Shown here one piece after another: positions 2,013 through 19,751 of a stretch of DNA of 64,000 nt. The notes below the pieces were generated by a model that worked only from the letters and a program-made list of their open reading frames with translations, had not been told where the DNA came from and made no database searches. The DNA comes from an uncultured Verrucomicrobiae bacterium (GTDB lineage: Bacteria > Verrucomicrobiota > Verrucomicrobiia > Chthoniobacterales > Chthoniobacteraceae). The stretch is taken from positions 160,001-224,000 of the forward strand of contig CAVYKI010000003.1 of NCBI GenBank assembly GCA_963769025.1, in the 5' to 3' direction. The position numbers and the translations under genes are program-made. Within the stretch, counting starts at the first letter, position 1. The number at the start of each line of letters is the position of its first letter.

Positions 2013-5000
2013 TCAGCGGAATGCCGGGCGAGCTTCGGCACGCGGCCCGGCAGGTCTGCGGGGCGGGGCGCCGATGTCGGTGGCGGTCACGGGATTCGGC
2101 GGCGCGGGAGCCTGTGGCGGTGGCTGCGGCTTGAGTTCGCGGCCGGATTTGGTGACGGGCTTGCCGTCCTTCGTGGAGACATCCTCGACGCGATAGAGCG
2201 ACCCGTCGGCGTGTCGCAGCAGGGGCCGCATTTCGTCGAGGCTCAACGGGCGCGCCCCGCGCCGGCCAAAGACGACCGTCTGCCCGCCGGTCTCGTCGGT
2301 GACGCGATCGCGGTCGAGTCCGCGGGAGACGGAGAGCGCACGATGCTTGGTGGGATACGAGGCGATGAGCCGCGGCGAAGGGCGCGGGCTGAATCCCGCG
2401 GCGCCCTCGACGGTGTCGGGCGAGATCAGCTGGACCACGCGCAGGCCGTTTTTCCCGTCGGCGACGAGCGCATACATGGATGCGGCGACGGAGCCGATCT
2501 GCACGGCCTGCGCGTCATTGATCTGGCCGCCGGCGGTGAACACCTGATCCAGCTTCGGCTTCTCGGGGTTTTCGATGTCGATGATGGCGAGTCCCTCCGG
2601 GCCGTTCGCGACGTAGGCGTAGGTGCGCGCGACGTAGAGCTTGCGCGCGTGGCGGAGCGGAACGCTGGCGCCGGGGATTGCGCGGGGACGTTCGGGGTCG
2701 GCGAGGCTGAGGACCTTCAACCCTTCGTCATCCGTGACGAATGCGTAGAGGAACTGCACGGCGATCGAGCGCGGGTTTTTCAGGAAGCTGCCGGTGAGTT
2801 CGCCGACGAGCCGCGGCTGATCCGGCTTTTTCACATCCACGACGGCGATGCCTCGCGGCGTGCAAATGTACACGCGATGCCCCGCACAGATCGCGTACTC
2901 CGCGCCGGTGAGCCGGCCGTCGGGATTGATATCCACGGCGGTCTTCTTGACGAAGTTGTTCTGCGGATTGCCGTCAAGCAGCGTGTTCACATCGCAGACG
3001 ACGAGCCCGAGCTTGCGGTCGGTGACGAATGCGTAGCCGTACCACGCGGGGATCGGCTGCTCCTCGTTTTCCGGGAGCTGGATGCGCATCGGGTCATTGA
3101 TGAGCGTGCTCGGCAGCGCGACCGACGTGGCGAACGGCGTGCGCACGTACGTCCGCTGCCCAAGCGGCGAGAACGGAGCGGTCACGATGCGTTCGCTGAA
3201 ATCCTTCTGATCAATGTTCGCCACGTCGTACACCTCGAAGCCGCTGGCCCCGTTCGCCGTGTAGAGGTATTCGCCGCGCAGTGTGAGGTCGTTGATTTCG
3301 CCCGAGTGGTGCTCGTGCGCCTCGGCGAGCTTACGGCCGCGCGCGAGGTGCTCGGCGTAGTTTCGCGGATAGGCGTTCTTGTGCATCGAACTGCCGATCA
3401 CCGACTGCGGTTCATCGGCCTCGGTCCAGATCACGGCGTGCAGATCCCCTTCCCCGCCGACGTATGCGTAGCGGCCGAAGAAATTCACCGTGCCCGTGCC
3501 GAAGCCGAGCAGTTGCGTCATCCACGCATTGTTGTCCTTCGCCTTCGCGAGATGGCAGTCGGTGCAGTTCTTCGTCGTGCCGACGCCGCTCGTCGTGTGC
3601 GGGAAATGCGGATTGAACGCCTGCCCGCTGTAGCCGTCGCCGCTCACCGTCTGCTGCTGCGAATAGACCCAGCCGCGGTTCTGCGTCTGCGAGCTCACCA
3701 GCACGGCGCTCGAGGATCGGATCACCGCGAGCCGGTTGTTTTTCACCGTGCCGTCGATGCCGAGCATGAAGACGTCGTCGCGCACCACCTGCGGATTGTA
3801 GGTCGTGAAATTGCGGCTGAGCGCGCCTTCGAATTTGTTCAACGGCACCTTCTGGTTTGCCTTCATGGAAAGGTGGCAGCCGAAGCAGCTCGTCGCCCAC
3901 GACGTGTGGCAGACCTGACAGTCCATGTTCTGGTTCGCGTGCGCGAGCGTGGACTTGCACTGCTTCTCGCCCGGCACTTCGCCCCAAGTCTCGCCGTCGC
4001 GCTGCACGGTCTTCGCGTGCGCGGCCTTCGCGTTGTACTTTTCCGAGACCGGATTGATGACGTCGATCGTCTGCGGGATTTCCCATCGCGCGTCCTTCGC
4101 CATCGTGGAGTTTTGGAAAAGGCGGCGCATCGGCTGGCCTTGCGAATCCTTGATCGGCTCGCCCGTGATTTTGTCCGTCACATCCTCCCACTCGAAGCGC
4201 GGCTTCCACGGCGTGATGCTCTTCGCGAGGTCCACGGGTGTGATTTTGCGCCGGTCCTTCGGGTCGGTCTGCCCCGCGGCGCCGCTCGTGATGAGCGTGG
4301 GCCGCGCGTTGATCGTGCCGTGGCAGTCCACGCACGTGATGGTCGTGGCGTTGCGCGCCTCGCCGTAAAGCAGGCCGTTTCCATGCACGTCCGTCTCGAA
4401 ATGGCAGTCCACGCACTGCATCCCCTTTTCGAGATGGATGTCCTTGAGATGCACGGCGCGCTTGAAATCGCGATGCGCGACGATGTTGTCATCGAGGTCG
4501 AGCCGGTTGCCCTTTTTGTCCTGCTTGAAGACGGCGCGAAAGATCCACCCGTGCCCGTGGTAGTCGGCGAACTGCGTGTGCTTCAGCTTCGGATTCAGCT
4601 CCGCGACCTTTTCCAGAAAATCGAGGTTGCCCCACAGCCCGCGCGCGGCGGCGGCCTCGGGATTTGAGACGGTTGCGCGGACGAGTTCGTCATCCGTCGG
4701 ATCGTGCTGTTCCTTCGGATACATAAATTCCGCATCCGTCTCCTGATCCCACCACGTGTATCCGAGGAACGGATTCACGAAGAGATTTCCCTGATGCATG
4801 TGGCAGTTCATGCACTGCGAGCTGGGGATGGAGCGCGTGAACTGATGGCTGATCGGATGCCCGCGCTCGCGTTTGGAAATCGTCGGGTCCTTCGAGAAGC
4901 TGAGCCCCTGATTTCCGAATTTGTGCCACCAGCCGGAGTTGCTCGGGGAGCGATCGTTCGCATAGACGACGTGGCAGGCGGTGCAGCCGCTCGAACGGTA

Positions 5001-6125
5001 GTCGCCGGGACGATCGTTCGAACCCATGAAGCCGAGCAGCGGATCGTGCAGGCGCGTCTTTTGTGCGCCGAGGAAAATGGGATCCGTGCGGTTCAGCGTG
5101 CCGAGTCCGCGCGGCGAGAGACGGCGCTCGGGCTTGCCGGGAGGCTCGTCGAACGCCGGCAGACCGGTCTGGAGCGGCTCGAAGCCGCCTTTTTCAAAAA
5201 TGCGGAGGATGTTTCCCGGCTGGCTGAGATTGAATCGCGGCAGCGGCACAAGCGACGGAAGGATGCCGAGCCGGCGCGTCTGCTCGGCGGTGGGCTTGAA
5301 CGGATTGTTCAGCTGGAGCGGAACGCCGTCCGCGCCGTAAGCCTGGCCGACGATTGCGTCCTTGCGGTTGATGGAGCCGTTGTTGTACGCGGCGGCGTTC
5401 CAGAGCATCGCGCCGTGGTTCATCATCGAGTGGCCGACGCGATCCACGATGTCGGCGTGGCAGAGCCCGCACGACTGCTTCGCCGCGCGGAGATCGCCGG
5501 GATTGATGAACCGGATGAACTCCGGCGATTCATGATTCAGCACGACGCTGGCGTTCACCGGATTCGCAGACGTCTGCCAGAACTCCGGATTCCGCGGCAG
5601 CACATGCGCCTTTTCGATGGCGAGCCCGCGCGCGGGATTCCCGCCGTGGCAGTCGGTGCAGCCGAGCACGACGTTCGGCGAAGTGTGCATCGTGTGCGTG
5701 TCCGTGGATGTGTGGCACTGGACGCAACCCACGCTCTTTCGGTTCGCCTCTTCCCAAGTCTGGTCGATGAGATTGCGCGGCGGACGCGACACTGAGACTT
5801 TTTCCGGACGCGCGGAGACCGGCGGGCCGAGACCCGCGCCCAGCAATTTTTCCGAAGTGGACTCCATGCCGGGGTGCTGACCTGCGCCCGGCAGTTGCGG
5901 GACCGGATAGGCGCCTGCCGATGTCGGCGGCCCGACGCCTGCGGCGGCGCCCGGAGGCGGCGGCAAAGCGGGAGGGACATCGCCCGGCGAGGGAAGAGGC
6001 GGAAGCTGCGTCCCGCCCGAAGCCGAGGTCGGCGGACCGAGACCGTCCTGCGCGTGCAGGAGCACGAGCGGCACCGCGACCACGAGGCTCGCGAACGCGA
6101 TCAAGAGTGGCGGAATGGGGCGCAT
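2013..6125 (-). CDS. Secreted decaheme c-type cytochrome fused to C-terminal LVIVD-type beta-propeller repeats
   Basis: Signal peptide; 10 CxxCH motifs (CVQCH, CTDCH, CGLCH, CTACH, CMNCH, CVDCH x2, CQVCH, CFGCH, CTDCH); repeats such as YAYVANGPEGLAIIDIENPEKP; ATG at 6125 overlaps the upstream stop (TGATG). Confidence 0.85.
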   Translation of the reverse strand: MRPIPPLLIAFASLVVAVPLVLLHAQDGLGPPTSASGGTQLPPLPSPGDVPPALPPPPGAAAGVGPPTSAGAYPVPQLPGAGQHPGMESTSEKLLGAGLGPPVSARPEKVSVSRPPRNLIDQTWEEANRKSVGCVQCHTSTDTHTMHTSPNVVLGCTDCHGGNPARGLAIEKAHVLPRNPEFWQTSANPVNASVVLNHESPEFIRFINPGDLRAAKQSCGLCHADIVDRVGHSMMNHGAMLWNAAAYNNGSINRKDAIVGQAYGADGVPLQLNNPFKPTAEQTRRLGILPSLVPLPRFNLSQPGNILRIFEKGGFEPLQTGLPAFDEPPGKPERRLSPRGLGTLNRTDPIFLGAQKTRLHDPLLGFMGSNDRPGDYRSSGCTACHVVYANDRSPSNSGWWHKFGNQGLSFSKDPTISKRERGHPISHQFTRSIPSSQCMNCHMHQGNLFVNPFLGYTWWDQETDAEFMYPKEQHDPTDDELVRATVSNPEAAAARGLWGNLDFLEKVAELNPKLKHTQFADYHGHGWIFRAVFKQDKKGNRLDLDDNIVAHRDFKRAVHLKDIHLEKGMQCVDCHFETDVHGNGLLYGEARNATTITCVDCHGTINARPTLITSGAAGQTDPKDRRKITPVDLAKSITPWKPRFEWEDVTDKITGEPIKDSQGQPMRRLFQNSTMAKDARWEIPQTIDVINPVSEKYNAKAAHAKTVQRDGETWGEVPGEKQCKSTLAHANQNMDCQVCHTSWATSCFGCHLSMKANQKVPLNKFEGALSRNFTTYNPQVVRDDVFMLGIDGTVKNNRLAVIRSSSAVLVSSQTQNRGWVYSQQQTVSGDGYSGQAFNPHFPHTTSGVGTTKNCTDCHLAKAKDNNAWMTQLLGFGTGTVNFFGRYAYVGGEGDLHAVIWTEADEPQSVIGSSMHKNAYPRNYAEHLARGRKLAEAHEHHSGEINDLTLRGEYLYTANGASGFEVYDVANIDQKDFSERIVTAPFSPLGQRTYVRTPFATSVALPSTLINDPMRIQLPENEEQPIPAWYGYAFVTDRKLGLVVCDVNTLLDGNPQNNFVKKTAVDINPDGRLTGAEYAICAGHRVYICTPRGIAVVDVKKPDQPRLVGELTGSFLKNPRSIAVQFLYAFVTDDEGLKVLSLADPERPRAIPGASVPLRHARKLYVARTYAYVANGPEGLAIIDIENPEKPKLDQVFTAGGQINDAQAVQIGSVAASMYALVADGKNGLRVVQLISPDTVEGAAGFSPRPSPRLIASYPTKHRALSVSRGLDRDRVTDETGGQTVVFGRRGARPLSLDEMRPLLRHADGSLYRVEDVSTKDGKPVTKSGRELKPQPPPQAPAPPNPVTATDIGAPPRRPAGPRAEARPAFR

Positions 6126-8457
6126 CAATACTGGAGCGTGACGGTGAGGAAGCCGTTGTAGAGGAAGTCATCGGCCTTTCCCGCGTCTCTGCGAGCCGAA
6201 GCCATCGACGGTCACGGTATTGGCGCGGTAGATGTCGCGATAGCCGCCGCCGGGAACGAAGAATCCCATGCCGATGGAGATCACGATGTTGTCCGTGAGC
6301 AGCGGCCGGTACTTGAAGCCGAAGCTCGCATCGAGTCCGAGATCATTGCGGAGCCGATCGGTCTGGAGCGCCACCTTCACCGCCTCGGGCTCGGCCAGCC
6401 AGATGTAGTTCACATTGAGAAACGCCTTCAGCTTTGGCGTGACGTCGATGTCAGTGCCGACGCCGAGGATGATCGCACCGGGGTTCACGAAGTTCGACTG
6501 CCCCTCGGTCTTGCTCGTGCGCAGGTTCGGCACGAGCGAGTCGCGCTGTTTCAGATTCACGGCCGTGCCCGCGAGATTGATGCCCTCGTGCGTGTACCAA
6601 CTGAACGGACCGCCGATGAAACTCGGATTGTCGAGGATGCTGTCGAATCCGCTGGCCGTGCCGTTCGTCGGGTTCGGGTCACCGCTCGCGTAAAAGCGCG
6701 GAAAATTTGAGCCGGTACCAGTCGCGATCATAGCTCAGCTCGATCGCGGCCATCTGCGCGTTGATCGTGACCTCGCGGCCCGCGAGCGAGTTGTAGTCCT
6801 CCTTGCCGAGCACCTGGTAAAACGCGTGGGTGACATTCAGCCGGCCGATGTGCCCGTCGCCGGTCCAGCCGAGGTAATACGCATTCACCGAGTTCGAACT
6901 CGGGCGTCCCGCTGGCGGTGTCCCGGACGGTGCCGACATTCAGCGGGCGCGTGAGGAAGCCGTTCCGTCGTAGTGCGTGCCGCCGTCGTCGAAATTCATG
7001 TGGAGGCTGACCTGCGCGGTGTAGCCCTTCCACAGGAAGTCCTGCCGGAACATGTTCGCGATGACGACCTGCTGATGCCGCGAGTCGAACGTGTTCAGGC
7101 CCGAGTAGGTGTCCTTCTCGCGCATGTTGAAATACGCGAGGTTGTATTGCGTCCGGTTGTTGTCGCGCGTGCCGAAGATGCGCGCGCCGAGGTTCGTGTC
7201 GGAAAAGATGAAGCCGCGGAAATCCGAGATGAACGGCTGGTTGCCGAAGCGCGATGAGATCGAAGTCGTAGTTGTCCGACGTGTCGCGGACGTGGATCTC
7301 GGCGAACGCCTCCTGCAGCGCAAAGTGGTCCTTGAACCGCGTGGTGTAGCGGCTCCCGCTGAAGTCGTTGTTTCCGCCGCCGGTGGCCGTGTTGTTCGTC
7401 GTGACGGTCGTGGCGGTGGTCGTCGTGCCATTGATCGGCACGAGCGCCTGCGCATTTCCCAGCGGCTGGAGCTGCGAGGAGAGGTAGTTGAACGCCGTGG
7501 CGGGATTCACGTTCGACGTGAACAGCCCGGGATTTCCGGACTGCGGATTCGCGCTTCCCGCGACGCCGGGGACCGCGCCGATGGCGGAGGTGTTCGGCGC
7601 GAAAGTGGCGCCGCCGTCCGAGCCGCGCGGGTCGGGATTCAGGAGGTTGTTTTCCCGCACGCGCGTCCAGTTGTTGTTGTACACCGCGTTCACGCGGATG
7701 AGCCAGCGTCACCGGCTTGAAGGCCGTCTCGCCCTTGAAAAGGTCGAATGCGAACGACACGTCGTTGGAAAACATCATCTGCTCGCCGCGGCCGAAAAAC
7801 TCCGCGCTGTTCGGCGTCGCCGTGCTCACGCCGCTGGGCACGGGCAGCTTGCGGACCTCGTAAAGCGCGAAGTCCTTCGCGGTGAGGTTCAGGAAAATGT
7901 CCTGCCCGATGATCGGCAGATCGCCCTTCAGTTTGCTCTGGCGGTACGGGTGCCAGAGCCGCGGCGTGTCGTACGTGTACGGCGTCTCGGTCGAGGGATC
8001 GCGGTAGCGCTGCCAGTGCGGGAAATGGCAGCGTCCAGCGGTTCGGCACCGCCGTCGAATTTGGCAGCAGGCCGAGGCCCTCGCGGCCCATCGGATACGA
8101 GTTGTAGGTGAATGTCTTCTTCACCGGGTCATGGCCGAGGACCATGCCGCGCGGCAGCTTCAGCGAGCCGGGAAGAATCGGATCCTCCGGAAAAAGGAGC
8201 GGGTCGGTCGCGCCCGGCGAAAGGCCCGGCTCGTTCCAGACTCCGGGATCGGGATTGAACACCGCGGGGGACTTCGGCGGCTCCTCCTGGACATTCCCGG
8301 CGGTCGGGCGCAGCGCCGGCGTCCCTTTGCGAAAACGCGGCCGCGCGTCCTCGCCGTTCGCGTCGGCGGCGCCGGTCACGATCACCGCTGCGCAGACTAC
8401 GAGGCGGCGCGTGGATGCGCGCTGGGGACTGAGGCGGCGTTGGCCAAGTCTTGGCAC
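6125..8457 (-). CDS. Putative outer-membrane beta-barrel (porin-like) protein, split by about 7 frameshifts
   Basis: Fragments join into one protein (FALQEAFAEIH, RFGNQPFISDFRGFIF, YYLGWTGDGHIG, ASFGFKYRP); ends ...FLYNGFLTVTLQY, an amphipathic strand with a terminal aromatic residue. Confidence 0.7.
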
Positions 8458-8505
8458 GCGCCGGTCATACGGTCCCTACGCGATGCGCGGCAATGCAAAA
8501 TGCCT

Positions 8506-8566: not shown

Positions 8567-8582
8567 ACAGCCTCCATCGTTC

Positions 8583-11176
8583 ATGAAGACGTCCATCTTC
8601 GCCACGGCTGCGCTCCTGTGCGCGATCCTCGTGCCGCAAAAGCTGCGGGCGCAGGACAGCGGGGAGCAGCTCACGGCGGCCGAGGTCACGCAGATCATCG
8701 CGCAGGCGGCGGCGGATGCGACGTGGAGAAACCCGGGAGCCATCATCGCCGTCACCGACCGCGAGGGATTCGTCCTCGGCGTCTGGGACATGCAGGGCCG
8801 CATTCCGAGTCCGCTGCCGGCATTCAGCCCTTTCCGATCTGGACAACAATCCCACGGCGGTCCGCACCTACGGCCTCTTCGCAGGCGCGATCACGCGCGC
8901 GGGCACGGCGGCATTCCTGAGCAGCGACCAGGAGGCGCTCACGACGCGCACCGCGGGATACATCATCCAGCAGCATTTCCCGCCGGGCGTCGCCAACACG
9001 CCTCCCGGCCCGCTCGTCGGCGTCGGTTTCTCGAGCCTGTTTTTTTCCGACATCAACCGGCTCAAACAGATCGCGAATCCGCTCTCAGCCGGTTCGCCAT
9101 TCGATCCGTCCGACCTCCGCGCTTCGCTCGCCCCCGGCGACACGGCCCGCATTTCGCCCGGCATCCGCGGCAACACGATCATCCCCGGCTCGCTGAACGA
9201 TTCCCCCGGCGGCGTGCCGCTCTACAAGAACGGGCATCTGGTCGGCGGCATCGGCGTCACCGGCGACGGCTACCCGACGAACCTCGCGCCGGCGGCGGCG
9301 ATTTTCCTGAACGAGACGAACACGACCTCCACCCCGGGCTTCGTGCCGAACGCGCTGAGCGACGCCGACGAGCAGGTCGCGCTCGCGGGCCAGCGCGGCT
9401 TCCGTCCCTCGCCGTACATCGTCGCGACGAATATCCTCATCAACGGAATCCGCATCCCGTACGTGTGGCAGGCCGTGCAGGACATCGTGGACGCCACGGG
9501 CTCCGTGCCGCTGACCAGTCTGCCGGGACGCATCGTGGACGGGTTTCCGATCCAGGCGCCGCCGCCGCCATTCCCGTATCCGGTCACGCAGCTCGGCGGC
9601 GTGACGGGCGAATTGCGCGGCCCTGTCGTGTTCGATTCGCCGGCGAATCCGTCCGGCACGATCCGTTTCATCGACGACCCGGTCTCCGCGATTCCGGGCA
9701 GGCAGCTCATCGGCGGCCAGAGCCGGCTGACCGCGGCGGAGGTCACGCAGATCATCACCAAGGCCGCGCAGCGCGCGAACATCACGCGGGCCGGCATCCG
9801 CCTGCCGCTCGGCACGTCGGCGAAGGTCTTCATCGTCGTGGTCAACAATCCCGACAAGGACCTCGAGGCCCCGGCTGTCCTCGGGACGTTCCGGGTCGGC
9901 GATGCGACCGTTTTCTCGTGGGATGTCGCGGTGCAAAAGGCGCGGACGTCCGTCTTCTTTTCAAACAGCCAGCTCGCGATGTCCACGCGCGCCGTCGGCT
10001 TCCTCGCGCAGAGCAATTTTCCGCCGGGCATCGACGGCAAGGCGTGGGGTCCGCTGTTCGGTTTTCAGGAAGCCGTGTCCTTGAAGCGCGCGCCGGTGAC
10101 GGGCGCGTTCCCGGGGAATCCGAACCTGCCGAATGGCATCACCATTTTCCCCGGCGGCTTTCCGCTCTACCGGAACGGCGTCGTCGTCGGCGCGATCGGC
10201 GTTTCCGGCGACGGCGTCGATCAGGACGACATCATCGCGGCGAGCGGATGCGCGGACTTTCTGGCGTATGACACGCATCCGCTCGGACACGTATTCGTAC
10301 GGCGGCGCGCGGCTGCCTTACGCGAAATTCCCGCGCAACCCGGTCGTCGCGGTGGACGCAGCCATCGACCCCGTCCCCGTCCCCGACGCGCCCGAGATGG
10401 ATTCCTCCGCGGTCGTCCGCTTTTCGCCAAAGGACGTCAGCGGTGACGGCGTCGCGGACCTGCTCTTCCAGAATTCCTCCGGCCAGGTCGCCGTCTGGTA
10501 TATGAACGGGAAAGGCTCCGCGTCGGGACTCGACACGCTCTACAGCGGCAACCTCGGCGACTGGAAAATCGTCGGCGCGGCGGACATCAACGGCGACGGC
10601 AACGCCGACATCCTCTTTCAAAACACGCTCGGCCAGATCGCCGTCTGGTACATGGACGGCAGCGGTGGACGCTCCGGCGTCGCCTACATCTACGGCGGCG
10701 GGCTCGGCGATTGGAAAGTCGCCGGCATCGCGGACATGAATGGCGACGGCAACGCCGACATCCTTTTCCAAAACACCACCGGGCAGATCGCCGCTTGGTA
10801 CACGGACGGCAAAGGCTCCATCTCCGGCACCGCCGACATCTCCAGCAGCGGGCTCGGCGACTGGAAAGTCACCGGCGTGGCGGACATGAACGGCGATGGG
10901 AATGCCGACATCCTCTTCCAGAATACCCTCGGCCAGATCGCCGTGTGGTACATGGATGGCAAAGGCGCGCGCTCCGGGAGCGCCTACATCCACGCTGGCG
11001 GCGTAGGCGACTGGCGGGTCGTCAACGTCGCGGACATGAATGGCGACGGCAATGCGGACATCGTCTTTCAGAACACCTCCGGCCAGGTCGCCGTCTGGTA
11101 TATGAATGGCAAGGGTTCCATCTCCAGCACCGCCTACATCTACAGCGGCGGCCTCGGCGACTGGCGCCTGCGCTGA
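8583..11176 (+). CDS. Secreted protein with tandem GlcG/HbpS-like heme-binding domains and C-terminal FG-GAP/VCBS-like repeats (frameshifts near 8835 and 10270)
   Basis: Signal peptide; duplicated LTAAEVTQII start; GGVPLYKNGHLVGGIGVTGDG and GGFPLYRNGVVVGAIGVSGDGVDQDD motifs; followed by DxNGDGxAD repeats. Confidence 0.75.
10433..11173 (+). repeat. Five tandem 150-nt (50-aa) FG-GAP-like coding repeats
   Basis: Repeat starts near 10432, 10582, 10732, 10882 and 11032; unit DxNGDGNADILFQNTxGQIAVWYMDGKG...GLGDWKV. Confidence 0.9.
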
Positions 11177-12657: not shown

Positions 12658-13596
12658 ATGAAAATCGACCGTTCTCACAGCCTCTGGATCCTCTTCGTCG
12701 TCCTCGCCACCTGCGGCGCGACTCTGCTGTACGTCGCGAACTTCTTCCCGCACCTCCTGCCGTTTCCGTTTCGGCTCCCCGCCATGCTCGGCAAGGCGCC
12801 GCCCTCGCACAACACCTACGGCGGCACGCCGCTCGGGTTGATTTTTGGCTCCGTCGCCTTCCTTATTTTTCTTTTCGCCTCCGCGCTCGGCATCCGGAAA
12901 AAGAAGCGCACGTGGCCCATCGGCAGCGTGCAGTTCTGGCTGAAAGGGCACATCTGGCTCACGATCCTCACCATCCCGCTCGTGCTCTTTCACTGCGGAT
13001 TCCACAGCGGCGGCATCCACACGAGCGCGCTCATGATCCTCTACGCCATCGTCATGGGCTCCGGATTTTTCGGCCTCGCGCTGCAGCAGTTCATGCCGCG
13101 CCTGATGCTGGAACGCCTGCCGCGCGAGGTGGTCTTCGAGCAGATCCCCTACCTCCGTAATCGCCTCCTCGAATCCGCGAACAAACTCCGCGACACCCTC
13201 GCGAAATCGCAACCCGTCACCGCAGCCGCGGGCTCGCAGCCGCAACCGCCTGCCGCCGTCGCGGACGATTCCTCCGTCCAGGTGCTCATCCGCTTTCTGG
13301 ATCGCGACTGTCTCCCTTACCTTTCCGCAAAACGCGGCACCCGCCATCCGCTCGGCGTCGAACAGATCGCGGCGAGCACGTTCAGCAGGCTGCGGATGAA
13401 TGTGGAGGAGCAATGGAAGCCGCGGGTGGACGCCATGCAAAACTGGTGCACCGACCGCCGGCTCATGGATCTCCAGACGAAACTCCAGCACTGGCTGCAC
13501 GGCTGGCTGCTCCTCCACGTGCCCACGTCGTTTGCGCTGCTCATCTTCACGGCATGGCACGCCGTCGTCGCCCTGCGTTTCATGCTGCCCGGGTAG
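12658..13596 (+). CDS. Polytopic membrane protein with His residues in or near TM helices (cytochrome b/ferric-reductase-like by inference)
   Basis: Several hydrophobic helices; WLKGHIWL, LFHCGF, WLLLHVP, AWHAVV. Confidence 0.65.
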   Translation: MKIDRSHSLWILFVVLATCGATLLYVANFFPHLLPFPFRLPAMLGKAPPSHNTYGGTPLGLIFGSVAFLIFLFASALGIRKKKRTWPIGSVQFWLKGHIWLTILTIPLVLFHCGFHSGGIHTSALMILYAIVMGSGFFGLALQQFMPRLMLERLPREVVFEQIPYLRNRLLESANKLRDTLAKSQPVTAAAGSQPQPPAAVADDSSVQVLIRFLDRDCLPYLSAKRGTRHPLGVEQIAASTFSRLRMNVEEQWKPRVDAMQNWCTDRRLMDLQTKLQHWLHGWLLLHVPTSFALLIFTAWHAVVALRFMLPG

Positions 13597-13605
13597 TTCA
13601 CGCGC

Positions 13606-15216
13606 ATGGACGGCAACTCTCCAACGCCAAAGCAGTCCTCCCAAAAGTATTGGGGCAATCTCGGCTACTTCCGGAAATCGCACTACATGCGCCGGCTCCG
13701 CGGCTGGTGCTTCGCGATCACCGCCCTCTGCGCGATCGTCGCGGCCGCGACCTATCACTACTGGGGCACCGGCCGGATTTTCAGCAAAGGTCCCATCTCG
13801 CAAAACCACGCGAGCTTCGCGAACGACTGCCGCGCCTGCCACATCGACGCGGAGATCGACACGCTCAAGGCCGCGCTTTCCGAAAGGCCGAGCGGCGCTT
13901 CGCTGCAGACGATCCTCACCGCGGGCAGTTCGCGCGATGGCAAGTCCGCCCACTGGCCGGCCGAGCGCTCCCGCATGGATGAGGCCTGCCTGAAGTGCCA
14001 CGCAAATACCGCCCTGCACGCCCCGCAAACCGCCGCGCTCGCGCTCCGCAACGTTTCCACCGAGATGGCGCAGGTGCATGCCACGCAATGTTTCACCTGT
14101 CACCGCGAGCATGTCGGCCATGGTGCGATCGTCCCTCCGGACCGCCAGACCTGCACGTCGTGTCACAACAGCGCCGAGGAACTCCGGCTCGCGCGCACCT
14201 CACTCCCGCTCAAAGGCCAGCCCGTCGCCGCGACCGGCGAAAATCGCGACCTCGGCGACGGATTGATCCGCTTTCTCGCGCCAGCGGAAAAATCGCGCCC
14301 GGTGAAGCCCTTCGCCGACTACACCGGGCATCCGCCGTTCAGCTACGAAAAGGCCGGCCTCCGCGATCCGGCGGACCTGAAATACAACCACGCACGCCAC
14401 GAGCGCGACGATGTCACCGTCCTCGGGCCGAACAAAAAGCTCGCCTGCGCCGACTGCCACACGCCCGGCCCCGGCGGCGCATACTACCAGCCAGTGAGCT
14501 ACGCGAAGCACTGCCAGCAATGCCACTCGCTGCAGATTCTCCCGGATTTGCCAAACCTGCTCATCCCGCACGGCGACGCGCAAAAGGTCCGCTATTTCCT
14601 CGCGAGCATCCGGGTGGCGATCGAGAACGCGCTCCGCGCCGAAGGCACCACCGACGCGGCGGAACTCTCCAAACGGGCGGAGACCGAACAGCAAACCCTG
14701 CGCAACCGCGGACTCGATACGCTCGTCGAACTCGAACAGCGCGTCTTTTTCGACGGCGACCCGAAGGACAGCCCGAACGACCGCCGCATGCGCGCCGGCA
14801 ACCGGAAATTCCTCACCGAATGCGCCAAATGCCACACGGTCAACCCGGCCGAGCCCGGCAAATCCCCGCGCGTGAACCCGCCCAACATGGCCGAGCGCTG
14901 GGTGCAGCGCGGCCCGTTCACTCATCTGCCGCATACACACATGGAATGCGCGGACTGCCACGCCACCGCGCACACGAGCAAGCTGACAAGCGACATCCTC
15001 ATGCCGCCGCAAAAACTCTGCGCCGAATGCCACCGTCCCCCGGCCACCCCAAGCCCGCTCGCGGTGGCCAGCTTCAAATCCCCCACCCCATCGACAGCCG
15101 CCGAAGCACTCGCAGCCAAACAGCGCCACAGCGGCGGCATCAAATGGGACTGCCAGAGCTGCCACGCATTCCACGCCCCGGCCGCCCCCAGCCCATCGGC
15201 CCCGGCGAATCGCTGA
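13606..15216 (+). CDS. Membrane-anchored decaheme cytochrome c (cytochrome c3-like)
   Basis: One N-terminal TM helix; 10 CxxCH motifs (CRACH, CLKCH, CFTCH, CTSCH, CADCH, CQQCH, CAKCH, CADCH, CAECH, CQSCH). Confidence 0.85.
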   Translation: MDGNSPTPKQSSQKYWGNLGYFRKSHYMRRLRGWCFAITALCAIVAAATYHYWGTGRIFSKGPISQNHASFANDCRACHIDAEIDTLKAALSERPSGASLQTILTAGSSRDGKSAHWPAERSRMDEACLKCHANTALHAPQTAALALRNVSTEMAQVHATQCFTCHREHVGHGAIVPPDRQTCTSCHNSAEELRLARTSLPLKGQPVAATGENRDLGDGLIRFLAPAEKSRPVKPFADYTGHPPFSYEKAGLRDPADLKYNHARHERDDVTVLGPNKKLACADCHTPGPGGAYYQPVSYAKHCQQCHSLQILPDLPNLLIPHGDAQKVRYFLASIRVAIENALRAEGTTDAAELSKRAETEQQTLRNRGLDTLVELEQRVFFDGDPKDSPNDRRMRAGNRKFLTECAKCHTVNPAEPGKSPRVNPPNMAERWVQRGPFTHLPHTHMECADCHATAHTSKLTSDILMPPQKLCAECHRPPATPSPLAVASFKSPTPSTAAEALAAKQRHSGGIKWDCQSCHAFHAPAAPSPSAPANR

Positions 15217-15238
15217 GACCGTTCAGCAAGGGGGCAAT

Positions 15239-17699
15239 TTACTTTTTCCCTGCCGCGCCTTCCATCACGCGGCGGAGCAGTTCCTCTCCGGTCATGCGTG
15301 AAGCGGCTTCGTGCGGGCAGGCGGAGACGCAGCGGGGTTCCGCCACTGCCAGCTTTCCCTCGGCGTCGCAGAGGTCGCAGGTGACGGCCTTTGGCTGCGC
15401 AAGCGAGAGCAGATGGTCGGGGTGATCGGGGTCCGGGAGTTCGACGCGGCGATGCTCGTTTGGCACCATCGTGATGTTGCCGTAGGGGCAGTTGTCCGCG
15501 CAGAGGCCGCAGCCGATGCAGTGATCCTCGATGACGATCTGGAGGTGTTTGCCGCGATGGATGGAATCGACGGGGCAGCCGATCATGCAGTGTGGGTCGG
15601 TGCAGGAGCGGCAGGCGGTGGCGACGGTGAAGCTCTCGAAGCGCACGCCGTCGCGGAGCATGCGCGTGACTGGGACGCCGTGCGAGTCTGTGCCGTGCTG
15701 CTGGACGCAGCCCTTCGTGCATTCGTCGCAACGCGTGCAGAGTTCCATGTCGAGCACGAGGAGCTTCCGCCCTTCGTAGAGGCCGTGCTCGACGTATTCG
15801 CGCAGCAGCGGGTGGCCCTCCACATTGCTGCGAAGCGCCGCGAGGGATTGCTCGACCAGGCGGCGCCGGAGGACGGGGAATTCGCGCACGAGCTGCAGGA
15901 AATCCGTGCGGCTGAGACGCGCCATTTCGAGCGGGCCGAGCGCCGAGCACGTGGCGTTGCGGAAGCCCGCGGGGACGGCATTGGCGAGGTCATCGCCTGC
16001 CGCATCGAGCGCGGCCGCGAGGGCGAGGTCCACTTCCTCGGCGGTCTTGCGGACATCCTGCGGAGAGATGGCGAGCAGGCTGATCTCGCCGAGGATGGCG
16101 CCGGGGCCGCGGGAAAGGACGCCGGTCTCCTTTCCAAAACGCCGGACGCCGACCCGCACGTGGCCGAGCCGGACGAGATACATGGCATTCGCGCGGTCGC
16201 CCTGCCGGAAAAGCGTCTGCCCGGGACTGACGCGCACGAAGGTGAGCCGCGGCCGGAGGAAATCGACGATGCTTTTGAACTCGTCCGCGCCGATGCCATC
16301 GAACAGATCGGCCCCCTGCAGCACGAGGTCGAGCGCGCGCTCGCGGTAGTCGGCCTCGAAGCGCTCGCGCTGGGACGGGAGCCGCATGAGGCGGTCGAGG
16401 ACGTTGCGCCGCACCTCCCACACTTCGGCGTCGCCGACCGCGTGCACGCTGGCCGTCCGCGGCGTCCCGCTCAGGCACGCCATCTCGCCGAAGATCATGT
16501 CTTCGGGGGTGAGCTGAAAATGCAGCGGCGACGCGTCCGGTTGCCGGACGGTGACCTCGAAGTTCCCGCTGCGGATGAGGAACGCGGTGTTGCCCGCGTC
16601 GCCCTGCCGGCACACGACCTGGCCCGCCTTCAGCCTGCGGCGAATGACGAGGCCCTGTTGCCAGAGGAGGAATTTCGGCGAGATGCCGGCGAAGGCCGGG
16701 TCGGAGATCAGTTCCGCGGGCGAGAGCACTTCCTTCGAATGATCGCCGGCGGGGATATTGATGCGCGCGCCGGTCTTGAACGTGATGGCGCTCGTCGGGC
16801 ACGAGACCATGCACTCGCCGCACTGCACGCAGCTCGAATTTCCCATCGGCTCGTTCAGGTCGAAGCTGATCCCGGCGGTCGCGCCCTTGCCGGTCCGGCC
16901 GATGACGTGATTCTCCTGCACCTCGTCGCACGCGCGCACGCAGCGGTCGCAGAGGATGCACGCCGAGTGATCCACGAGGAAGACGGGCGATGAGGCGTCC
17001 AGTGCGCGGCGTCCGACATTGGGCGCAGCGGCGGGCGGCGGATCCGAGAGGACATCGAGCGCGAGGCGCGACGGTTCCGCGCCGCAACGGTCGACCATCT
17101 GGCCGAGTTCGTTGAACGGCGCGAGTTCCTGATCCAGCGCGGGCGGCTCGAACGGCTTGAGATGATTCACCGCGAGCATTTCCGTCATCACTTTCACCGT
17201 CTGCCGCACGCGTTCGCCGTCCTTTCCCGGATCGTTCATCGTGAAGACTTCCATCCCCTCCTTCACCTGATGCTGGCACGCGGGGAGCAGCTTGCGCTCG
17301 GCGGCGCGCTTGCCGCGCTTTTGCCCGTAGATCTGCACGACGCACATGCGGCAGACCGCCACGGGCGTCATGTGCGGCAGATGGCACAGCGTCGGGATCG
17401 GGATCTTCGCCTCGTCGCCCGGCTGCTTCACGTAGAGCTTCACTCGCGGCGTCGTAGATGGTCGTGTAGCGCGGCGTCGTCCGCCCTTCGATGTCCAGCA
17501 CGATGTTGCCGTTCGCGTCCTTCAGCGGCTCGGCGAGCGGCACGGTCACGGACTGGCCGTCGATCTGGAGCGTGACGGTCTTGCCGTAGTCGCCCTCCGT
17601 CGGGGAATCGAGGCGGACGAGCTGGCCGTCGATGTCGCGGCTGAACAGCCCTTCGTCGTCATCGCGAATGAACAGGCCTTCCCCAAGTCCGGGAATCAT
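15239..17699 (-). CDS. Fusion of NuoG/FdhA-like [2Fe-2S] + 2x[4Fe-4S] module, two cNMP-binding domains and a DmsB/NrfC-like 4x[4Fe-4S] domain (frameshift near 17445)
   Basis: IPTLCH...CRMC...LLPAC; CILCDRCVRAC; CVQCGECMVSCP; FGEMACLSGTPRTASV; LGEISLL; CTRCDECTKGC, CRSCTDPHCMIGCP, CIGCGLCADNCP, CDLCD...CVSACP. Confidence 0.8.
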
Positions 17700-19751
17700 G
17701 GCGTGCCCTCCGTGCGTGTTCCCGATGGCGACAGGTGGCTCGCGACGTCATCGGGGAAAAAGGTGAGCGCCGTGAGCAGCGGCATCGGCACCGAGCGGCC
17801 GAGCCCGCAGATGGAAGCCAGCTCGATCGCCTTGCCCATTTCCTTGATGAGCGGGACGAGTTCATCGTTCCAGCGATCGGCGCTGATTTTTCCCGCGAGG
17901 AGGTGCGCGCCGAGCGACGCGAACTTCTGCGACCCGATCCGGCACGGGACGCATTTCCCGCACGACTCGTTGCGGAAAAATTCGATGGAATTGACGGCCT
18001 GCTCCACCATGTCGCGGCCCTCGGCATAGACGACGAGCCCGGCGCCGAGCGCCTGCGTGGGGCTCAGGCGCGCGGAACAGGTTCAGCTCGAGTTCCAGAT
18101 CGAGGATGTCGAGTTCCGTCGCCGCGGGATCGAATCCGCGGCGAGCCGCAAGCGCCTGCCACGCCTTGTTGTTCACATGGTCGCGCGGCAGGCCGTCGGG
18201 CGCGGTCAGCTTCGCGGGCAGAAAGCCGCCGGACGGTCCCGACGGCGCGAAGCCCTTGAGCGCCCGATCACCCGCGATGCCCTGGCAGTACTGCTCGCCG
18301 TGGATGAGTTCGCGCAGGGTCATTCCCATCGGCACCTCGTACACGCCGGGCCGCTTCACGTCGCCGGAGACGGAGAAAAAGCGCCGGCCCTGCCAGCCGT
18401 TCACGCCGAGCGCGGCGTAGGTCTTGCCGCCGTTGATGACGATGTACGGCACCCACGCGAAGGTCTCGACGTTGCTCACGAGCGTCGGGAGATCGTGCAG
18501 GCCGTTGGTCTCGAGCTTCGGCGGCATGTTGCGCGGCTCGCCGCGGCGATCGGACATCGCCTCGATGAGCGCGCTCTGCTCGCCGCAGATGTAGCCGCCG
18601 GGGCTGACGAAGACCGAAATCGGAAAAGGCCGGCCAAGCACCGACGCATTCGGCCCGCAGAATCCGAGCTTCGCCGCGCGCTCGATCTCGGCACGGCATG
18701 CCTCGATCTGCTCGTCGTATTCGTGGCGGATGTAGATGAACCCCTGCGTCGCCTCGGTGATGAGCCCGGCGAGGATCACGCCCTCGACGATCATGTGCGG
18801 CGCGCGGAGCAGCAGCTCGCGGTCCTTGAAGGTGGCCGGCTCGCTCTCGTCGCCATTGACGACGATGAACGCGCGCTCGTCCGTCTCCCGCTGCCGCGCC
18901 TTCCGGACCGCATCGCGCACATCGCGCCACTTTTGCGTCGCCGGGATGCCCGCGCCGCCCATGCCGCGAAGATCCGCGTCCTTGAGTTCATCGAGCAATG
19001 CGTCCGCCCATCCGCCGAGCGCCGCGCCCTTCGCCCAATCCGTCTCCGTCTGCCAGCACAGCACCGCGCCGGCGACCTCGGGCTCCATCGGGAAATCAAC
19101 GCGCATCTGGCGGATGCATCCCTGGCGAAATTCCTCCACGCGCTCCGAGCCCCATCCGGATTGTGTCTTGAGAGCCTCCGCGGCCGCCGCGAGCGACGTG
19201 TCGCGCGCCGCGATCGCCTTTCGCACACCGAGATACTCCGGCGTCTTGCCGCCGTACGGATCGATCATCCAATCCTTCGCCGCATAACCTTGGTCCGCAT
19301 CGTGATCAGGCTCGAGCGGCTCATCCCGCACGCACGCCTCGACCACGCCTCGCAACTCATCAGCCGAACGGCCAAGATAGTACTGCTCATGTCCCGAACC
19401 CTGCACGCTGACGCAAGCCGCCGGCGCCCGATCGCACCGGCCCACGCACGAGACTCCCTCGACCGCGACATGCTCACCGACGAGCGATTGCAACTCGCGC
19501 AGCACCGCTCCCGAACCCGCAAGATGGCAGGTCGTGTCCCGGCAAACGCGCAGGACGACCTTCTTCGGCGGCGAAAGCTGAAAGTGAGGGAAGAAACTCG
19601 CCACCGCCTGCAGGCGATACTGCGGCACGCCCGACTCGTCCGAAAACTGTTCGAGTGCCTCTTTTTTCAAGAACCCGAACTCCTCCTGAATCCGCTGCAA
19701 CGCAGGGACCAGCGTCGCGCCGTAAAGATTGAGAGTCGTCCCGGAGCTCAT
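17696..19751 (-). CDS. NuoE-NuoF fusion (HoxF-like NAD(P)H/FMN diaphorase subunit; frameshift near 18070)
   Basis: CRDTTC...CVGRC ([2Fe-2S]); LRGMGGAG, NGDESEPATFKDR, YICGEQSAL, SNVETF, ESCGKCVPCRIG...SICGLG. Confidence 0.85.

Follow-up and report, generated by a model that had tools for sequence, protein, structure and literature searches.

A conserved gene set of Chthoniobacterales encoding a candidate electron conduit from NADH to the cell exterior

Gene content of the locus

Eight contiguous genes in a 64,000-nucleotide stretch of verrucomicrobial DNA (the window) encode a cytoplasmic flavoprotein and iron-sulfur protein, an inner-membrane protein, three multiheme c-type cytochromes, a putative outer-membrane beta-barrel, and a secreted HbpS-like protein. 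We read the locus as a three-module conduit that would carry electrons from NADH across the envelope to an outside acceptor, bypassing quinone, and we consider this reading to have an even chance of being correct. The eight products listed in the first-pass annotation were all found between positions 2013 and 19751 (ORF list and Pfam), and its total of 24 heme motifs (10, 4, and 10) holds provided that a CX4CH site is counted. As it had also stated, no H-cluster, NiFe, or molybdopterin catalytic subunit is present, with no such family matched by Pfam in 15 ORFs scanned. The genes are contiguous, as it had claimed, but they do not form one operon because the strand switches five times. The reading of one module per predicted compartment agrees with the sequences: NuoEF and the FeS-cNMP protein have no signal peptide, a decaheme cytochrome is anchored by an N-terminal helix, and signal peptides are present in the rest.

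The NuoE-NuoF fusion flavoprotein (17696 to 19751, minus strand; PF01257, PF01512, and PF10531 in Pfam) comprises a 2Fe-2S domain, an FMN/NADH site, an SLBB domain, and an N3 4Fe-4S domain. A frame break near 18067 to 18086 displaces the N3 domain into another frame. The listed ORF (17862 to 19751) consequently ends in a false C terminus, and the real one, with the motif CGKCVPCR...CGLG, was found in a different frame; an unbroken orthologue (L053, 10432 to 12459) has PF10589. The fusion scored 272 bits against the complex I NuoF family, for which the cutoff is 558 bits, and no extra bifurcation domains were seen with Pfam. The ordinary complex I nuo genes of the genome are on a separate contig.

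The start codon of the cytoplasmic FeS-cNMP-ferredoxin gene (15239 to 17699, minus strand) overlaps the NuoEF stop codon, and in the window both genes converge on the gene for the anchored decaheme rather than lying within its operon. The product begins with a NuoG/HoxU-like head (one 2Fe-2S and two 4Fe-4S clusters), followed by a pair of cNMP-binding domains and a DmsB/NarH-type ferredoxin tail with four clusters, matched in Pfam as Fer2/4Fe-4S, two cNMP domains, and polyferredoxin. Partial NCBIfam matches were to HoxU, the FeFe-hydrogenase N terminus, HydN, and DsrO. A frame break near 17440 to 17465 removes about 85 N-terminal residues from the ORF. Across all 17 sequences compared, the 16 cluster cysteines of the ferredoxin tail never vary, nor do the G-E...R-x-A residues in the phosphate-binding cassettes of the two cNMP domains. 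No output domain was detected with Pfam. Related ferredoxins come in two forms: a short form that stands alone and a long form that carries a fused NuoG-like head and has NuoEF as its partner. In the long form, an insert of about 33 residues interrupts the binding cassette of the second cNMP domain. Three class III cyclases are encoded in the genome, and cAMP or cGMP could tune electron flow through the two cNMP domains.

The inner-membrane protein (12658 to 13596, plus strand, with the start corrected to 12658) has five predicted helices and a cytoplasmic helical domain at about residues 150 to 275. Its four conserved histidines, H98/H112 and H287/H301, are the sole invariant histidines across the wider family and fall into two pairs of i,i+14 spacing on parallel helices in the alignment and the AF2 model (pLDDT 77), a pattern that suggests a two-heme cytochrome b. 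The protein had no match in NCBIfam or in Pfam, even at E 10, and because no family or fold match was significant, it is the histidine pattern that argues for heme binding. Among 21 diverse members of the family, subthreshold matches were to DUF4405 (13 members), Ferric_reduct (8), and Ni_hydr_CYTB (3); the signals for Ferric_reduct, DUF4405, and cytochrome b561 are weak across the family. The first-pass annotation had suggested structure prediction for a complex of the membrane protein, FeS fusion, and decaheme. Docking of the membrane protein with the ferredoxin tail gave weak support for contact between these two, with a score of 0.58 compared to 0.00 for the best of three controls. In the benchmark, 116 of 157 solved complexes attained the mark, as did 2 of 215 mismatched pairs; those attaining it with scores of 0.60 or less were 18 of the 157 solved complexes and both mismatches. 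The docking runs shared at least 95% of contacts, and the partner pLDDT was at least 78.

The anchored decaheme cytochrome (13606 to 15216, plus strand) has 10 CxxCH motifs and a Pfam cytochrome c3/c7 match; it is anchored in the membrane at its N terminus and has a tail of about 30 conserved residues in the cytoplasm. Ten hemes are kept in 26 of 26 orthologues, and no sequence match was found among solved structures. Divergent from the membrane protein gene is that of a periplasmic tetraheme cytochrome (11258 to 12397, minus strand; PF13435) with a visible signal peptide, a c554-like N-terminal half, and a helical C-terminal half. It carries three CxxCH motifs and CASSSCH (the CX4CH site), a 3+1 count retained in 21 of 21 orthologues. 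Genes for cytochrome c maturation are present in the genome.

The putative barrel gene (approximately 6168 to 8493, minus strand) was located from tblastn pieces, which place it in at least five frames; the intact orthologue has 782 amino acids. The window gene has no Pfam match, and the AF2 model (pLDDT 34) gave no usable fold. Of 120 homologues, 119 end in an aromatic residue, and the last strand is alternating. Immediately downstream is the gene for a secreted decaheme cytochrome (2013 to 6128, minus strand) with 10 CxxCH motifs and a C-terminal LVIVD beta-propeller (Pfam LVIVD at 4e-14), which had no match to a solved structure; 10 hemes are present in 7 of 7 Verrucomicrobia orthologues. 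The HbpS-like protein (8583 to 11176, plus strand; PF03928 and PF13517) is secreted, as first described, and has two HbpS-like (GlcG/DUF336) domains and a C-terminal FG-GAP propeller, the latter absent from the earlier reading. Its gene is broken twice in the window, near 8830 to 8845 and near 10260, and is single in relatives (intact orthologue, L015, 9718 to 12303, 861 amino acids).

Frame integrity and conservation of the gene set

Five of the eight genes are interrupted by single-base frameshifts, and with the five strand changes this could mean chance neighbors or unrelated systems, present in this genome as decaying pseudogenes. We regard that as highly improbable. The carrier is a soil verrucomicrobium. 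Its assembly consists of 13 contigs at 83% completeness, and the neighboring AcrB gene, unrelated to the locus, is likewise split (Pfam); these features fit indel errors, and the frameshifts are probably assembly errors. The genes of relatives are unbroken at the same sites, and their contigs are one base shorter at barrel gene positions 6697, 6896, 7261, and 7708. If the breaks are real, the present copy is dead.

Pseudogene decay or chance is further opposed by co-conservation, on which the first-pass annotation had staked its reading: the genes are kept together through rearrangements, in their phyletic profile, and in a second lineage. Of 80 related loci, 78 have the anchored decaheme gene directly after that of the membrane protein, and 50 have cNMP-ferredoxin or NuoEF beside the pair; the short and long ferredoxin forms never co-occur in these loci. 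Linkage persists across four gene orders in Chthoniobacterales. Thirteen loci have membrane protein, decaheme, NuoEF, and FeS-cNMP in that order on a single strand (in L053, the NuoEF start at 10432 overlaps the decaheme stop at 10435), and in 30 loci a short-form ferredoxin lies directly upstream of the pair on the same strand. Among 35 loci with full flanks, the tetraheme is present in 25 and no ferredoxin partner is nearby in 13; four genomes without an adjacent ferredoxin encode NuoEF and FeS-cNMP elsewhere. In a 121-genome sample of the order, strong matches to the membrane protein, the cNMP-ferredoxin, and the barrel numbered 17, 18, and 17, respectively, and all three occurred in the same 17 genomes, across four families. 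Among 301 sampled genomes of the phylum, the membrane protein was clear only in Chthoniobacterales.

The second, distant lineage is probably Acidobacteriota. Its membrane protein is about 33% identical, and NuoEF, FeS-cNMP-ferredoxin, membrane protein, and decaheme form a tight operon, with gaps of 1 to 2 bases or overlaps, that adjoins the barrel and decaheme-LVIVD genes. The ferredoxin is upstream in 38 of 39 loci, and the decaheme directly follows the membrane protein in all 39. NuoEF was found in 27 of 28 loci, the tetraheme in 23 of 23, the decaheme-LVIVD cytochrome (9 or 10 hemes) in 18 of 24, and the barrel, whose orthologue has a CarboxypepD_reg N-terminal domain, in 15 of 20.

Relation to known systems

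Family and structure comparisons agree with the initial view that no characterized system matches the locus. The further view that it resembles nothing known needs qualifying, given the uncharacterized ptd core and a 2017 proposal of porin-cytochrome systems in Verrucomicrobia. According to its description (bioRxiv 10.1101/2023.11.21.568154), ptdABCDEFG is a named cluster of marine hosts, uncharacterized in function, that encodes in order a periplasmic tetraheme, a cNMP-binding 4Fe-4S protein, a ferric reductase-like membrane protein, and a decaheme, as well as a porin and an NAD(P)-linked oxidoreductase. Compared by description only, this core order is that of the short-form tetraheme, cNMP-ferredoxin, membrane protein, and decaheme. 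As described, the Ptd input is an FAD/NAD(P) oxidoreductase and its outer cytochrome is a pentaheme with a beta-sandwich, whereas here NuoEF is combined with a cNMP-ferredoxin that bears a fused NuoG-like head, the outer cytochrome carries 10 hemes and an LVIVD propeller, and an HbpS-like protein is additional to the components described. The hosts also differ, being marine for Ptd as described and, for the present system, Chthoniobacterales of soil and fresh water and probably Acidobacteriota.

He et al. (2017, PMC5615132) reported putative porin-multiheme cytochrome clusters in freshwater Verrucomicrobia, including "Ca. Udaeobacter" and Opitutus, and proposed electron transfer to humics. The phylum is the same, a novel porin likewise stands beside multiheme cytochromes (porins compared by description only), and Udaeobacter-labeled loci carry the present system. 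In their account, however, the periplasmic partner has eight hemes, the inner-membrane route is left open, and Opitutus is listed, whereas the membrane protein here was clear only in Chthoniobacterales among the 301 genomes.

MtrCAB/Pcc systems of Shewanella and Geobacter also pair an outer-membrane barrel gene with a decaheme gene and further periplasmic multiheme cytochromes, with the same proposed role of electron transfer through the outer membrane. However, the window barrel has no MtrB_PioB match, the window cytochromes scored 23 to 26 bits against DmsE/MtrA and OmcA/MtrC (cutoffs, 192 to 209), and input there is from quinol via CymA, ImcH, or CbcL rather than a cytoplasmic NADH module. 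Hmc/Tmc of sulfate reducers share the combination of periplasmic multiheme cytochrome, membrane cytochrome b, and cytoplasmic FeS protein, and NarGHI/FdnGHI likewise have a ferredoxin with four clusters that docks on a b subunit with two hemes. They differ in that no HdrD-like CCG protein, molybdopterin subunit, or NrfD-like subunit was matched here (Pfam) and in the direction proposed here, from NADH to the outside; scores were 22 bits for HmcA (cutoff, 400) and 16 bits for TmcA (cutoff, 114). NOX/Fre/STEAP proteins are alike in principle, passing electrons from cytoplasmic NAD(P)H via flavin and two stacked bis-His b hemes to an outside acceptor, and are alike in having two histidine pairs on two parallel helices; Ferric_reduct is weakly matched in 8 of 21 family members. 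Here, in contrast, there is no fused FAD/NADPH domain, input is by a separate FMN/FeS module and output by multiheme c cytochromes, and the window membrane protein has neither a Pfam match at E 10 nor a fold match.

Proposed electron path and alternatives

From the gene content we infer donor, acceptor, direction, gating, and each transfer step as follows. NuoE-NuoF would oxidize NADH at FMN, and its FeS clusters would hand the electrons to the FeS-cNMP protein, which would take them up at its NuoG/HoxU-like head and relay them to its ferredoxin tail; cAMP or cGMP could tune the flow between head and tail. The ferredoxin would dock at the cytoplasmic domain of the membrane protein. The membrane protein, with two putative bis-His b hemes lying one above the other in the bilayer (an arrangement known from NarI and the NOX/Fre ferric reductases), would then reduce the anchored decaheme at the periplasmic face. 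The soluble tetraheme may then ferry electrons through the periplasm to the barrel and decaheme-LVIVD cytochrome, which, with the HbpS-like protein assisting, would reduce humics, Fe(III), or a similar acceptor outside the cell.

The inner-membrane pair could instead be a quinol:cytochrome c oxidoreductase similar to CbcL of Geobacter, its b hemes exchanging electrons with menaquinone and the FeS-cNMP protein serving as a second, non-pumping NADH:quinone input or as a redox/cAMP sensor modulating the complex rather than as part of the wire. We consider this unlikely, though it has points in its favor. Five of five short-form genomes searched had only NuoF at 35 to 40% identity and no dedicated NuoEF, so NADH is not a universal donor and these systems need another, for example quinol. 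The genome has ordinary complex I genes, and di-heme b subunits working with four-cluster ferredoxins (NarHI, FdnHI) normally contain a quinone site. However, whichever form the ferredoxin takes, its conservation strictly tracks that of the membrane protein. A sensor would not be expected to have a long chain of FeS clusters, and no output domain was matched in Pfam.

Somewhat less likely still is that the path ends in a specific reductase, with the decaheme-LVIVD and HbpS-like proteins reducing, in the periplasm or at the cell surface, a defined soluble or colloidal compound (for example, selenite/tellurite, a nitrogen oxide, or an organic oxidant) rather than minerals or humics in general. 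The fusion of hemes to a large beta-propeller points to a domain for binding or catalysis, a local similarity of 52 residues links to the ExtM cytochrome of a selenite/tellurite operon, and Ptd, as described, occurs in nitric oxide-transforming bacteria (bioRxiv 10.1101/2023.11.21.568154). The ExtM match, however, is 67 bits against a cutoff of 800, and Pfam, family, and structure comparisons detected no catalytic heme motif or known enzyme family.

With NADH at -320 mV, transfer to hemes and humics is downhill, and a membrane potential negative inside favors electrons moving outward. The reverse path, from external Fe(II), reduced humics, or a partner cell through the FeS protein and NuoEF to NAD+, is improbable: it would work against both the redox gradient and the membrane potential, NuoEF has no extra bifurcating domains, and the flanks examined show no carbon fixation context, even though NuoEF-type modules are reversible and the Pio and Mto porin-cytochrome systems operate in electron uptake. 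Counting against outward conduction is that electron export without protons would cost membrane potential. If the conduit from NADH to the exterior is nevertheless the true reading, it would provide a sugar-degrading organism with an electron vent that regenerates NAD+.

Gene inventory and frame breaks

All genes named in the first-pass annotation were located where it had placed them by ORF listing, codon-position G+C, and Pfam searches. A six-frame motif scan bore out its count of 24 heme motifs as 10 + 4 + 10, with 10 CxxCH motifs in the decaheme-LVIVD gene (2013 to 6128, minus strand), three CxxCH motifs and one CX4CH motif in the tetraheme gene (11258 to 12397, minus strand), and 10 CxxCH motifs in the anchored decaheme gene (13606 to 15216, plus strand). 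These counts are fixed in orthologues of the anchored decaheme (26/26), the tetraheme (21/21), and the decaheme-LVIVD protein (7/7). Hydrogenase and molybdopterin catalytic families, which had been described as missing from the locus, were matched by none of the ORFs scanned against Pfam. There are five strand changes within the cluster, and a single-operon reading was therefore rejected.

The window has a G+C content of 65% and belongs to a Chthoniobacterales genome of 13 contigs that is 83% complete. Its sequence contains many single-base frame breaks, with sites near 6190, 6697, 6896, 7261, 7708, 8022, 8840, 10260, 17450, and 18070. The NuoEF ORF (17696 to 19751, minus strand) has its C-terminal N3 4Fe-4S domain shifted to another frame near 18070, and the true start of the FeS-cNMP gene (15239 to 17699, minus strand) is 17699, so that its first codon and the NuoEF stop (17696) overlap. 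The HbpS-like gene (8583 to 11176, plus strand) and an FG-GAP ORF form a single 861-amino-acid gene in relatives, and the barrel gene (6168 to 8493, minus strand) is broken over at least five frames. An AcrB/RND transporter gene (19874 to 22472, minus strand) is likewise divided into two overlapping ORFs, covering profile positions 187 to 521 and 519 to 1020; the gene is unrelated to the cluster, and its frameshift fits indel errors across the assembly. Contigs of relatives have one base fewer at exactly 6697, 6896, 7261, and 7708; the contigs compared were mostly relatives at 88 to 95% likeness, with few identical pieces and these from one soil run. Because the AcrB gene is split too and the relatives lack these bases, the frame breaks are probable assembly indels. 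A cluster of pseudogenes was rejected as the main reading, since AcrB, which has no connection with the cluster, shows the same kind of split. The protein analyses used intact orthologues, and the window genes were left unmended. An Rfam scan additionally found a tmRNA gene (151 bits; 25477 to 25837, minus strand) and a tRNA gene (59162 to 59233, minus strand), both unrelated to the cluster.

Linkage of the genes within Chthoniobacterales

The proposal that these genes belong together was upheld by their linkage across rearrangements, by a shared phyletic profile, and by their occurrence in a second lineage. Of 24 further genomes from the genus, 19 encode the anchored decaheme, which also occurs in two more families within the order. 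The 18 neighborhoods examined followed two patterns. The full nine-gene layout was retained in three genomes (G003, G004, and G014) and, with an insertion, in a fourth (G001), and in the compact trio a shorter cNMP-polyferredoxin gene immediately precedes those for the membrane protein and decaheme, on the same strand and amid unrelated flanks.

When each species was represented by a single genome, a scan with the alignment of the membrane protein gave 196 relatives, of which 80 were kept, all Verrucomicrobiota. The decaheme gene adjoins the membrane protein gene in 78 of the 80 loci. The short ferredoxin form is present in 30 loci and the long FeS-cNMP form in 18, with two more loci carrying NuoEF alone before the contig end; the two forms never occur together. 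Three layouts of the long form were seen: on the same strand after the decaheme (13 loci, including L053, where the decaheme stop overlaps the NuoEF start), convergent as in the window (4 loci), and downstream of the tetraheme (3 loci). Flanks of at least 7 kb on either side were available for 35 loci; the short form occurs in 12 of these, the long form in 10, and neither form in 13. Four of these last genomes were checked, and all encode NuoEF and the FeS-cNMP protein elsewhere. The genome carrying the window has the long form only, and its inner module is present in a single copy. Short-form genomes have a separate locus (L118, L120, and L123) in which the genes for the barrel, the decaheme-LVIVD protein, and the HbpS-like protein are grouped, and genome G056 (L121) has all nine genes contiguous in yet another order.

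The phyletic profile was taken from one sample of 121 genomes of the order searched with three proteins. The membrane protein was strongly matched in 17 genomes and weakly in 3 more, the cNMP-ferredoxin was found in 18 (the same 17 and one of the weak-match genomes, where both genes adjoin), and the barrel was found in exactly those 17. The carriers span four families; because related genomes are not independent, the profile is to be read as a pattern rather than as a statistic. In a sample of 301 genomes of the phylum, clear membrane-protein matches were confined to Chthoniobacterales, with two weak partial matches elsewhere.

Several loci deviate in other ways. Unlike other barrel loci, L119 (G018:C37) and L125 (G101:C4) have no decaheme-LVIVD gene after the barrel and no CxxCH-rich ORF within the stretch examined. 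A distant variant (L124, G087:C1:538000-557999) encodes a cNMP-ferredoxin, a membrane-protein-like gene (24% identity), and a 798-amino-acid decaheme, with one 5-heme ORF and one 4-heme ORF upstream. An ORF of 563 to 622 amino acids lies between the decaheme and FeS-cNMP genes in G014 and G004 (L015:3848-5716, minus strand; also L035 and L060); it has no Pfam match and an odd codon-position G+C and is absent from the window.

A second lineage with a related gene set

The membrane-protein family comprises 1,133 clusters at 90% identity, all annotated as hypothetical, and a profile search gave 2,600 clusters at 50% identity. An alignment of 21 diverse members (A4) was used to scan metagenome contigs. 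This yielded a second lineage, represented in soil and peat-like records by 39 loci no shorter than 7 kb, with a membrane protein about 33% identical to that of the window. Here NuoEF, the long FeS-cNMP-ferredoxin, the membrane protein, and the decaheme follow one another in a tight operon with intergenic gaps of 1 to 2 bases or overlaps, the tetraheme gene being divergent and the decaheme-LVIVD and barrel genes convergent. The ferredoxin is upstream of the membrane protein in 38/39 loci and the decaheme downstream in 39/39. NuoEF was present in 27 of the 28 loci with enough left flank, the tetraheme in 23/23, the decaheme-LVIVD gene in 18/24, and the barrel in 15/20. The second lineage is probably Acidobacteriota, which the Atlas gives, as a lead, as the commonest phylum for this branch; Myxococcota are also named, likewise as a lead, for distant members.

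A GH63/MGH1-like glycoside hydrolase gene adjoins the cytochrome cluster in the window (31 to 1311, plus strand). Similar neighbors occur at L107:535-1752 and L110:1822-3039 in Verrucomicrobia and at L178:917-3586 in the second lineage, and the gene may be a recurrent neighbor or a coincidence.

Cytoplasmic module

NuoEF contains the NuoE 2Fe-2S domain, the FMN/NADH site, SLBB, and the N3 cluster, and an intact orthologue matched PF01257, PF01512, and PF10589 above their cut-offs. Its score against the NuoF equivalog was 272 bits (cut-off, 558), and the nuo genes of the genome lie at another place; judged by score, NuoEF is a paralogue of complex I NuoF. The FeS-cNMP protein begins with a NuoG/HoxU-like head bearing a 2Fe-2S site, a His-containing 4Fe-4S motif, and a further 4Fe-4S motif, followed by two cNMP domains and a four-cluster tail. 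Pfam identified Fer2_4 and Fer4 domains in an intact orthologue (P0002), and the second-lineage orthologue matched NADH-G_4Fe-4S_3 just below the cut-off (24.5 versus 27 bits). The score against HoxU was 113 bits (cut-off, 333). The domains of the complex I N-module (NuoEFG) and the HoxEFU diaphorase are present, but the scores mark the proteins as paralogues.

In the tail, the Cys residues fall into four groups, as is typical of four-cluster ferredoxins of the DmsB/NarH/HybA type, and all 16 are invariant in 17/17 sequences of both long and short forms. The cNMP domains matched PF00027 at 3e-34. The phosphate-binding cassette G-E...R-[ST/N]-A is present, with G, E, R, and A of both cassettes invariant in 17/17 sequences, and the long forms have an insert of about 33 residues in the second cassette. 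Three class III nucleotide cyclases are encoded in the genome. Because the cNMP domains sit between the FeS head and the tail, allosteric control by them is plausible from the domain order.

Membrane protein and docking

The membrane protein (12658 to 13596, plus strand) had no match in Pfam or NCBIfam, and the window's protein had none in Pfam even at an E value of 10. An AF2 model (pLDDT, 77) predicted that four helices at the N terminus are followed by a soluble domain, itself helical, and by one long helix at the C terminus. The loops are rich in lysine and arginine, and the positive-inside rule therefore places the soluble domain in the cytoplasm. Two histidine pairs, H98/H112 and H287/H301, are conserved in 10/10 sequences and are the sole invariant His residues across the 21 diverse members. 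They form two i,i+14 pairs on two predicted helices running in the same direction (AF2), which is the pattern, in a putative di-heme cytochrome b, of two bis-His hemes stacked across the membrane. Ferric reductase domains and di-heme cytochromes b share this arrangement, with a spacing of 13 to 14 residues within each pair on two transmembrane helices. Subthreshold matches among the 21 members were to DUF4405 (13), Ferric_reduct (8), and prokaryotic cytochrome b561 (3), with a best E value of 7e-4. Fold searches were uninformative: the model gave no Foldseek match in the PDB at an E value of ≤0.001, and a wide VIA-align search returned helical sensor domains with a best Z of 10.0, within the helical-bundle background. 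A profile search of solved structures with A4 returned nothing relevant.

Docking of the ferredoxin tail on the membrane protein scored 0.58, compared to 0.00 for the best of three controls, and was classed as "weak support." Of 157 solved complexes, 116 attained the docking mark, as did 2 of 215 mismatched pairs; at scores of ≤0.60 it was attained by only 18 of the 157 solved complexes and by both mismatches. The docking runs shared at least 95% of contacts, with partner pLDDT of at least 78. The cytoplasmic tail of about 30 residues ahead of the decaheme's anchor helix (13606 to 13700, plus strand) is strongly conserved, with the pattern ...QK.IA.KY.GNL.YF.K.HYLRR... across most orthologues; this conservation hints at a contact on the cytoplasmic side.

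Cytochromes and outer module

The genome encodes cytochrome c maturation proteins. None of the three cytochromes matched a solved structure by sequence. The decaheme-LVIVD protein has a proline-rich stretch after its signal peptide (about 5800 to 6050, minus strand), in which G-x-G-P-P-x-S-A occurs three times, and the orthologue at L094 has a similar G-Y-G-P-P-T at its N terminus. A second, heavily frameshifted copy of this gene lies at the start of another contig in the same genome (G000, C7:64-4236; 45 to 75% identity in pieces).

An intact orthologue of the putative outer-membrane barrel matched no Pfam family at E values up to 10, MtrB_PioB included, and no NCBIfam family; a profile search of solved structures with the barrel alignment (A2) returned nothing relevant, and the AF2 model from a 9-row alignment was unusable (pLDDT, 34). 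A signal peptide is visible at the N terminus of a homologue (P0346), the last residue is Y or F in 119/120 homologues, and the final strand alternates. The alternation count was 31, compared to 15 ± 8 in shuffles. The second-lineage orthologue has an N-terminal CarboxypepD_reg domain. P0346 (59% identity) comes from a 7.8-Mb contig of a Verrucomicrobiota bacterium, possibly a cultured carrier.

Comparison with known systems

The first-pass annotation had held that the locus matches no characterized system. On scores this stands: MtrCAB (DmsE/MtrA TIGR03508, 23 bits versus a cut-off of 192; OmcA/MtrC TIGR03507, 26 versus 209), the Geobacter Ext/Pcc conduits with their Ext and Oma/Omb/Omc proteins (ExtM NF040943, 67 versus 800, over a 52-residue stretch only; GSU2203 family, 16 to 17 versus 325), and Hmc/Tmc (HmcA, 22 versus 400; TmcA, 16 versus 114) all fell far short, and Pfam found no CCG/HdrD domain in the locus. 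Rnf gave partial subthreshold matches only (RnfB, 35 versus 68.7 bits; RnfC, 21 versus 246), and no Rnf membrane subunit was present in the ORFs scanned.

The claim needs qualification, as a system of this kind is already in print. A preprint describes a named, uncharacterized cluster, ptdABCDEFG, in marine Alpha- and Gammaproteobacteria, Nitrospirales, and Planctomycetes, consisting of a pentaheme (PtdA), a porin, an FAD/NAD(P) oxidoreductase (PtdC), a tetraheme, a cNMP protein with 4Fe-4S, a ferric-reductase-like membrane protein, and a decaheme (10.1101/2023.11.21.568154). Compared by description only, the ptd D-E-F-G order is the short-form arrangement found here, in which a tetraheme lies upstream in 19/30 loci, and the porin has its counterpart in the barrel of the carrier genomes. 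Neither a pentaheme gene nor one for an FAD/NAD(P) oxidoreductase was seen in the window; as described, ptd has another NAD(P)-linked enzyme in the position of NuoEF, which independently fits an NAD(P)H-fed conduit. For Verrucomicrobia, He et al. in 2017 put forward a new system of porin and multiheme cytochromes whose periplasmic partner has eight hemes and, in the text available, left the inner-membrane route open (PMC5615132); the available text of a 2019 follow-up by the same authors adds no inner-membrane component (PMC6344600). That Opitutus-type porin cluster may be the same system or a separate one; the present membrane protein had no match outside Chthoniobacterales in the 301 genomes other than the two weak partial ones. 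Literature searches on cNMP/4Fe-4S/multiheme/NuoF systems and on Chthoniobacter multihemes found nothing further beyond the ptd preprint. The kind of system has been noticed in print but never characterized. What is new here is the NuoEF/NuoG-like input, the decaheme-LVIVD output, and the HbpS-like accessory protein, in abundant soil lineages.

Proposed mechanism and implications

Comparative genomics lends good support to a putative conduit from the cytoplasm to the cell surface. It would consist of a cytoplasmic NADH-oxidizing FMN/FeS unit, an inner-membrane di-heme cytochrome b with the anchored decaheme, served by the periplasmic tetraheme, and an outer-membrane barrel with the decaheme-LVIVD and HbpS-like proteins. 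We infer both the direction of flow and the cNMP gating. Outward flow from NADH is favored by redox potential and by the inside-negative membrane potential; inward flow to NAD+ is uphill in both respects. The wire could be likened to a NOX/Fre ferric reductase in which an FeS chain replaces the flavin domain and the cytochrome chain is the acceptor. In an organism that ferments sugars, it would restore NAD+ while costing some of the membrane potential.

Since no subunit for handling quinones is evident, the wire may bypass the quinone pool. The weakest point of the model is that none of the five short-form genomes searched has a dedicated NuoEF; the donor therefore differs among carriers, and the cytochrome b may instead have a quinone-linked role. 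Taking the bypass further, the system could be a quinone-independent NADH:extracellular-acceptor oxidoreductase across both membranes, a regulated vent tuned by cyclic nucleotides, in soil Chthoniobacterales and probably Acidobacteriota. We advance this full reading tentatively and consider it rather unlikely. From FMN, electrons would pass along a chain of some eight FeS clusters, then the two b hemes and the 24 c hemes, to the surface, and the wire would be opened or closed by cAMP or cGMP bound at the domains that separate the FeS head from the ferredoxin tail.

To our knowledge, the known routes of extracellular electron transfer in Gram-negative bacteria begin at the quinone pool. A route from cytoplasmic NADH via a two-heme cytochrome b would, if true, follow a different wiring logic, with a built-in second-messenger sensor. 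The comparative data narrow the question to a defined gene set with intact orthologues in many genomes, which makes it testable. If the oxidoreductase reading is true, sugar fermentation would be linked directly to humic or iron reduction, and the vent would be used by abundant soil Chthoniobacterales, including Udaeobacter-labeled genomes. The carriers, in Chthoniobacterales and in the lineage that is probably Acidobacteriota, are heterotrophs widespread in soil and freshwater, and neither group is known for respiring metals or humics. Through this system, polysaccharide degradation could therefore be tied to iron/humic redox cycling in a way so far overlooked.
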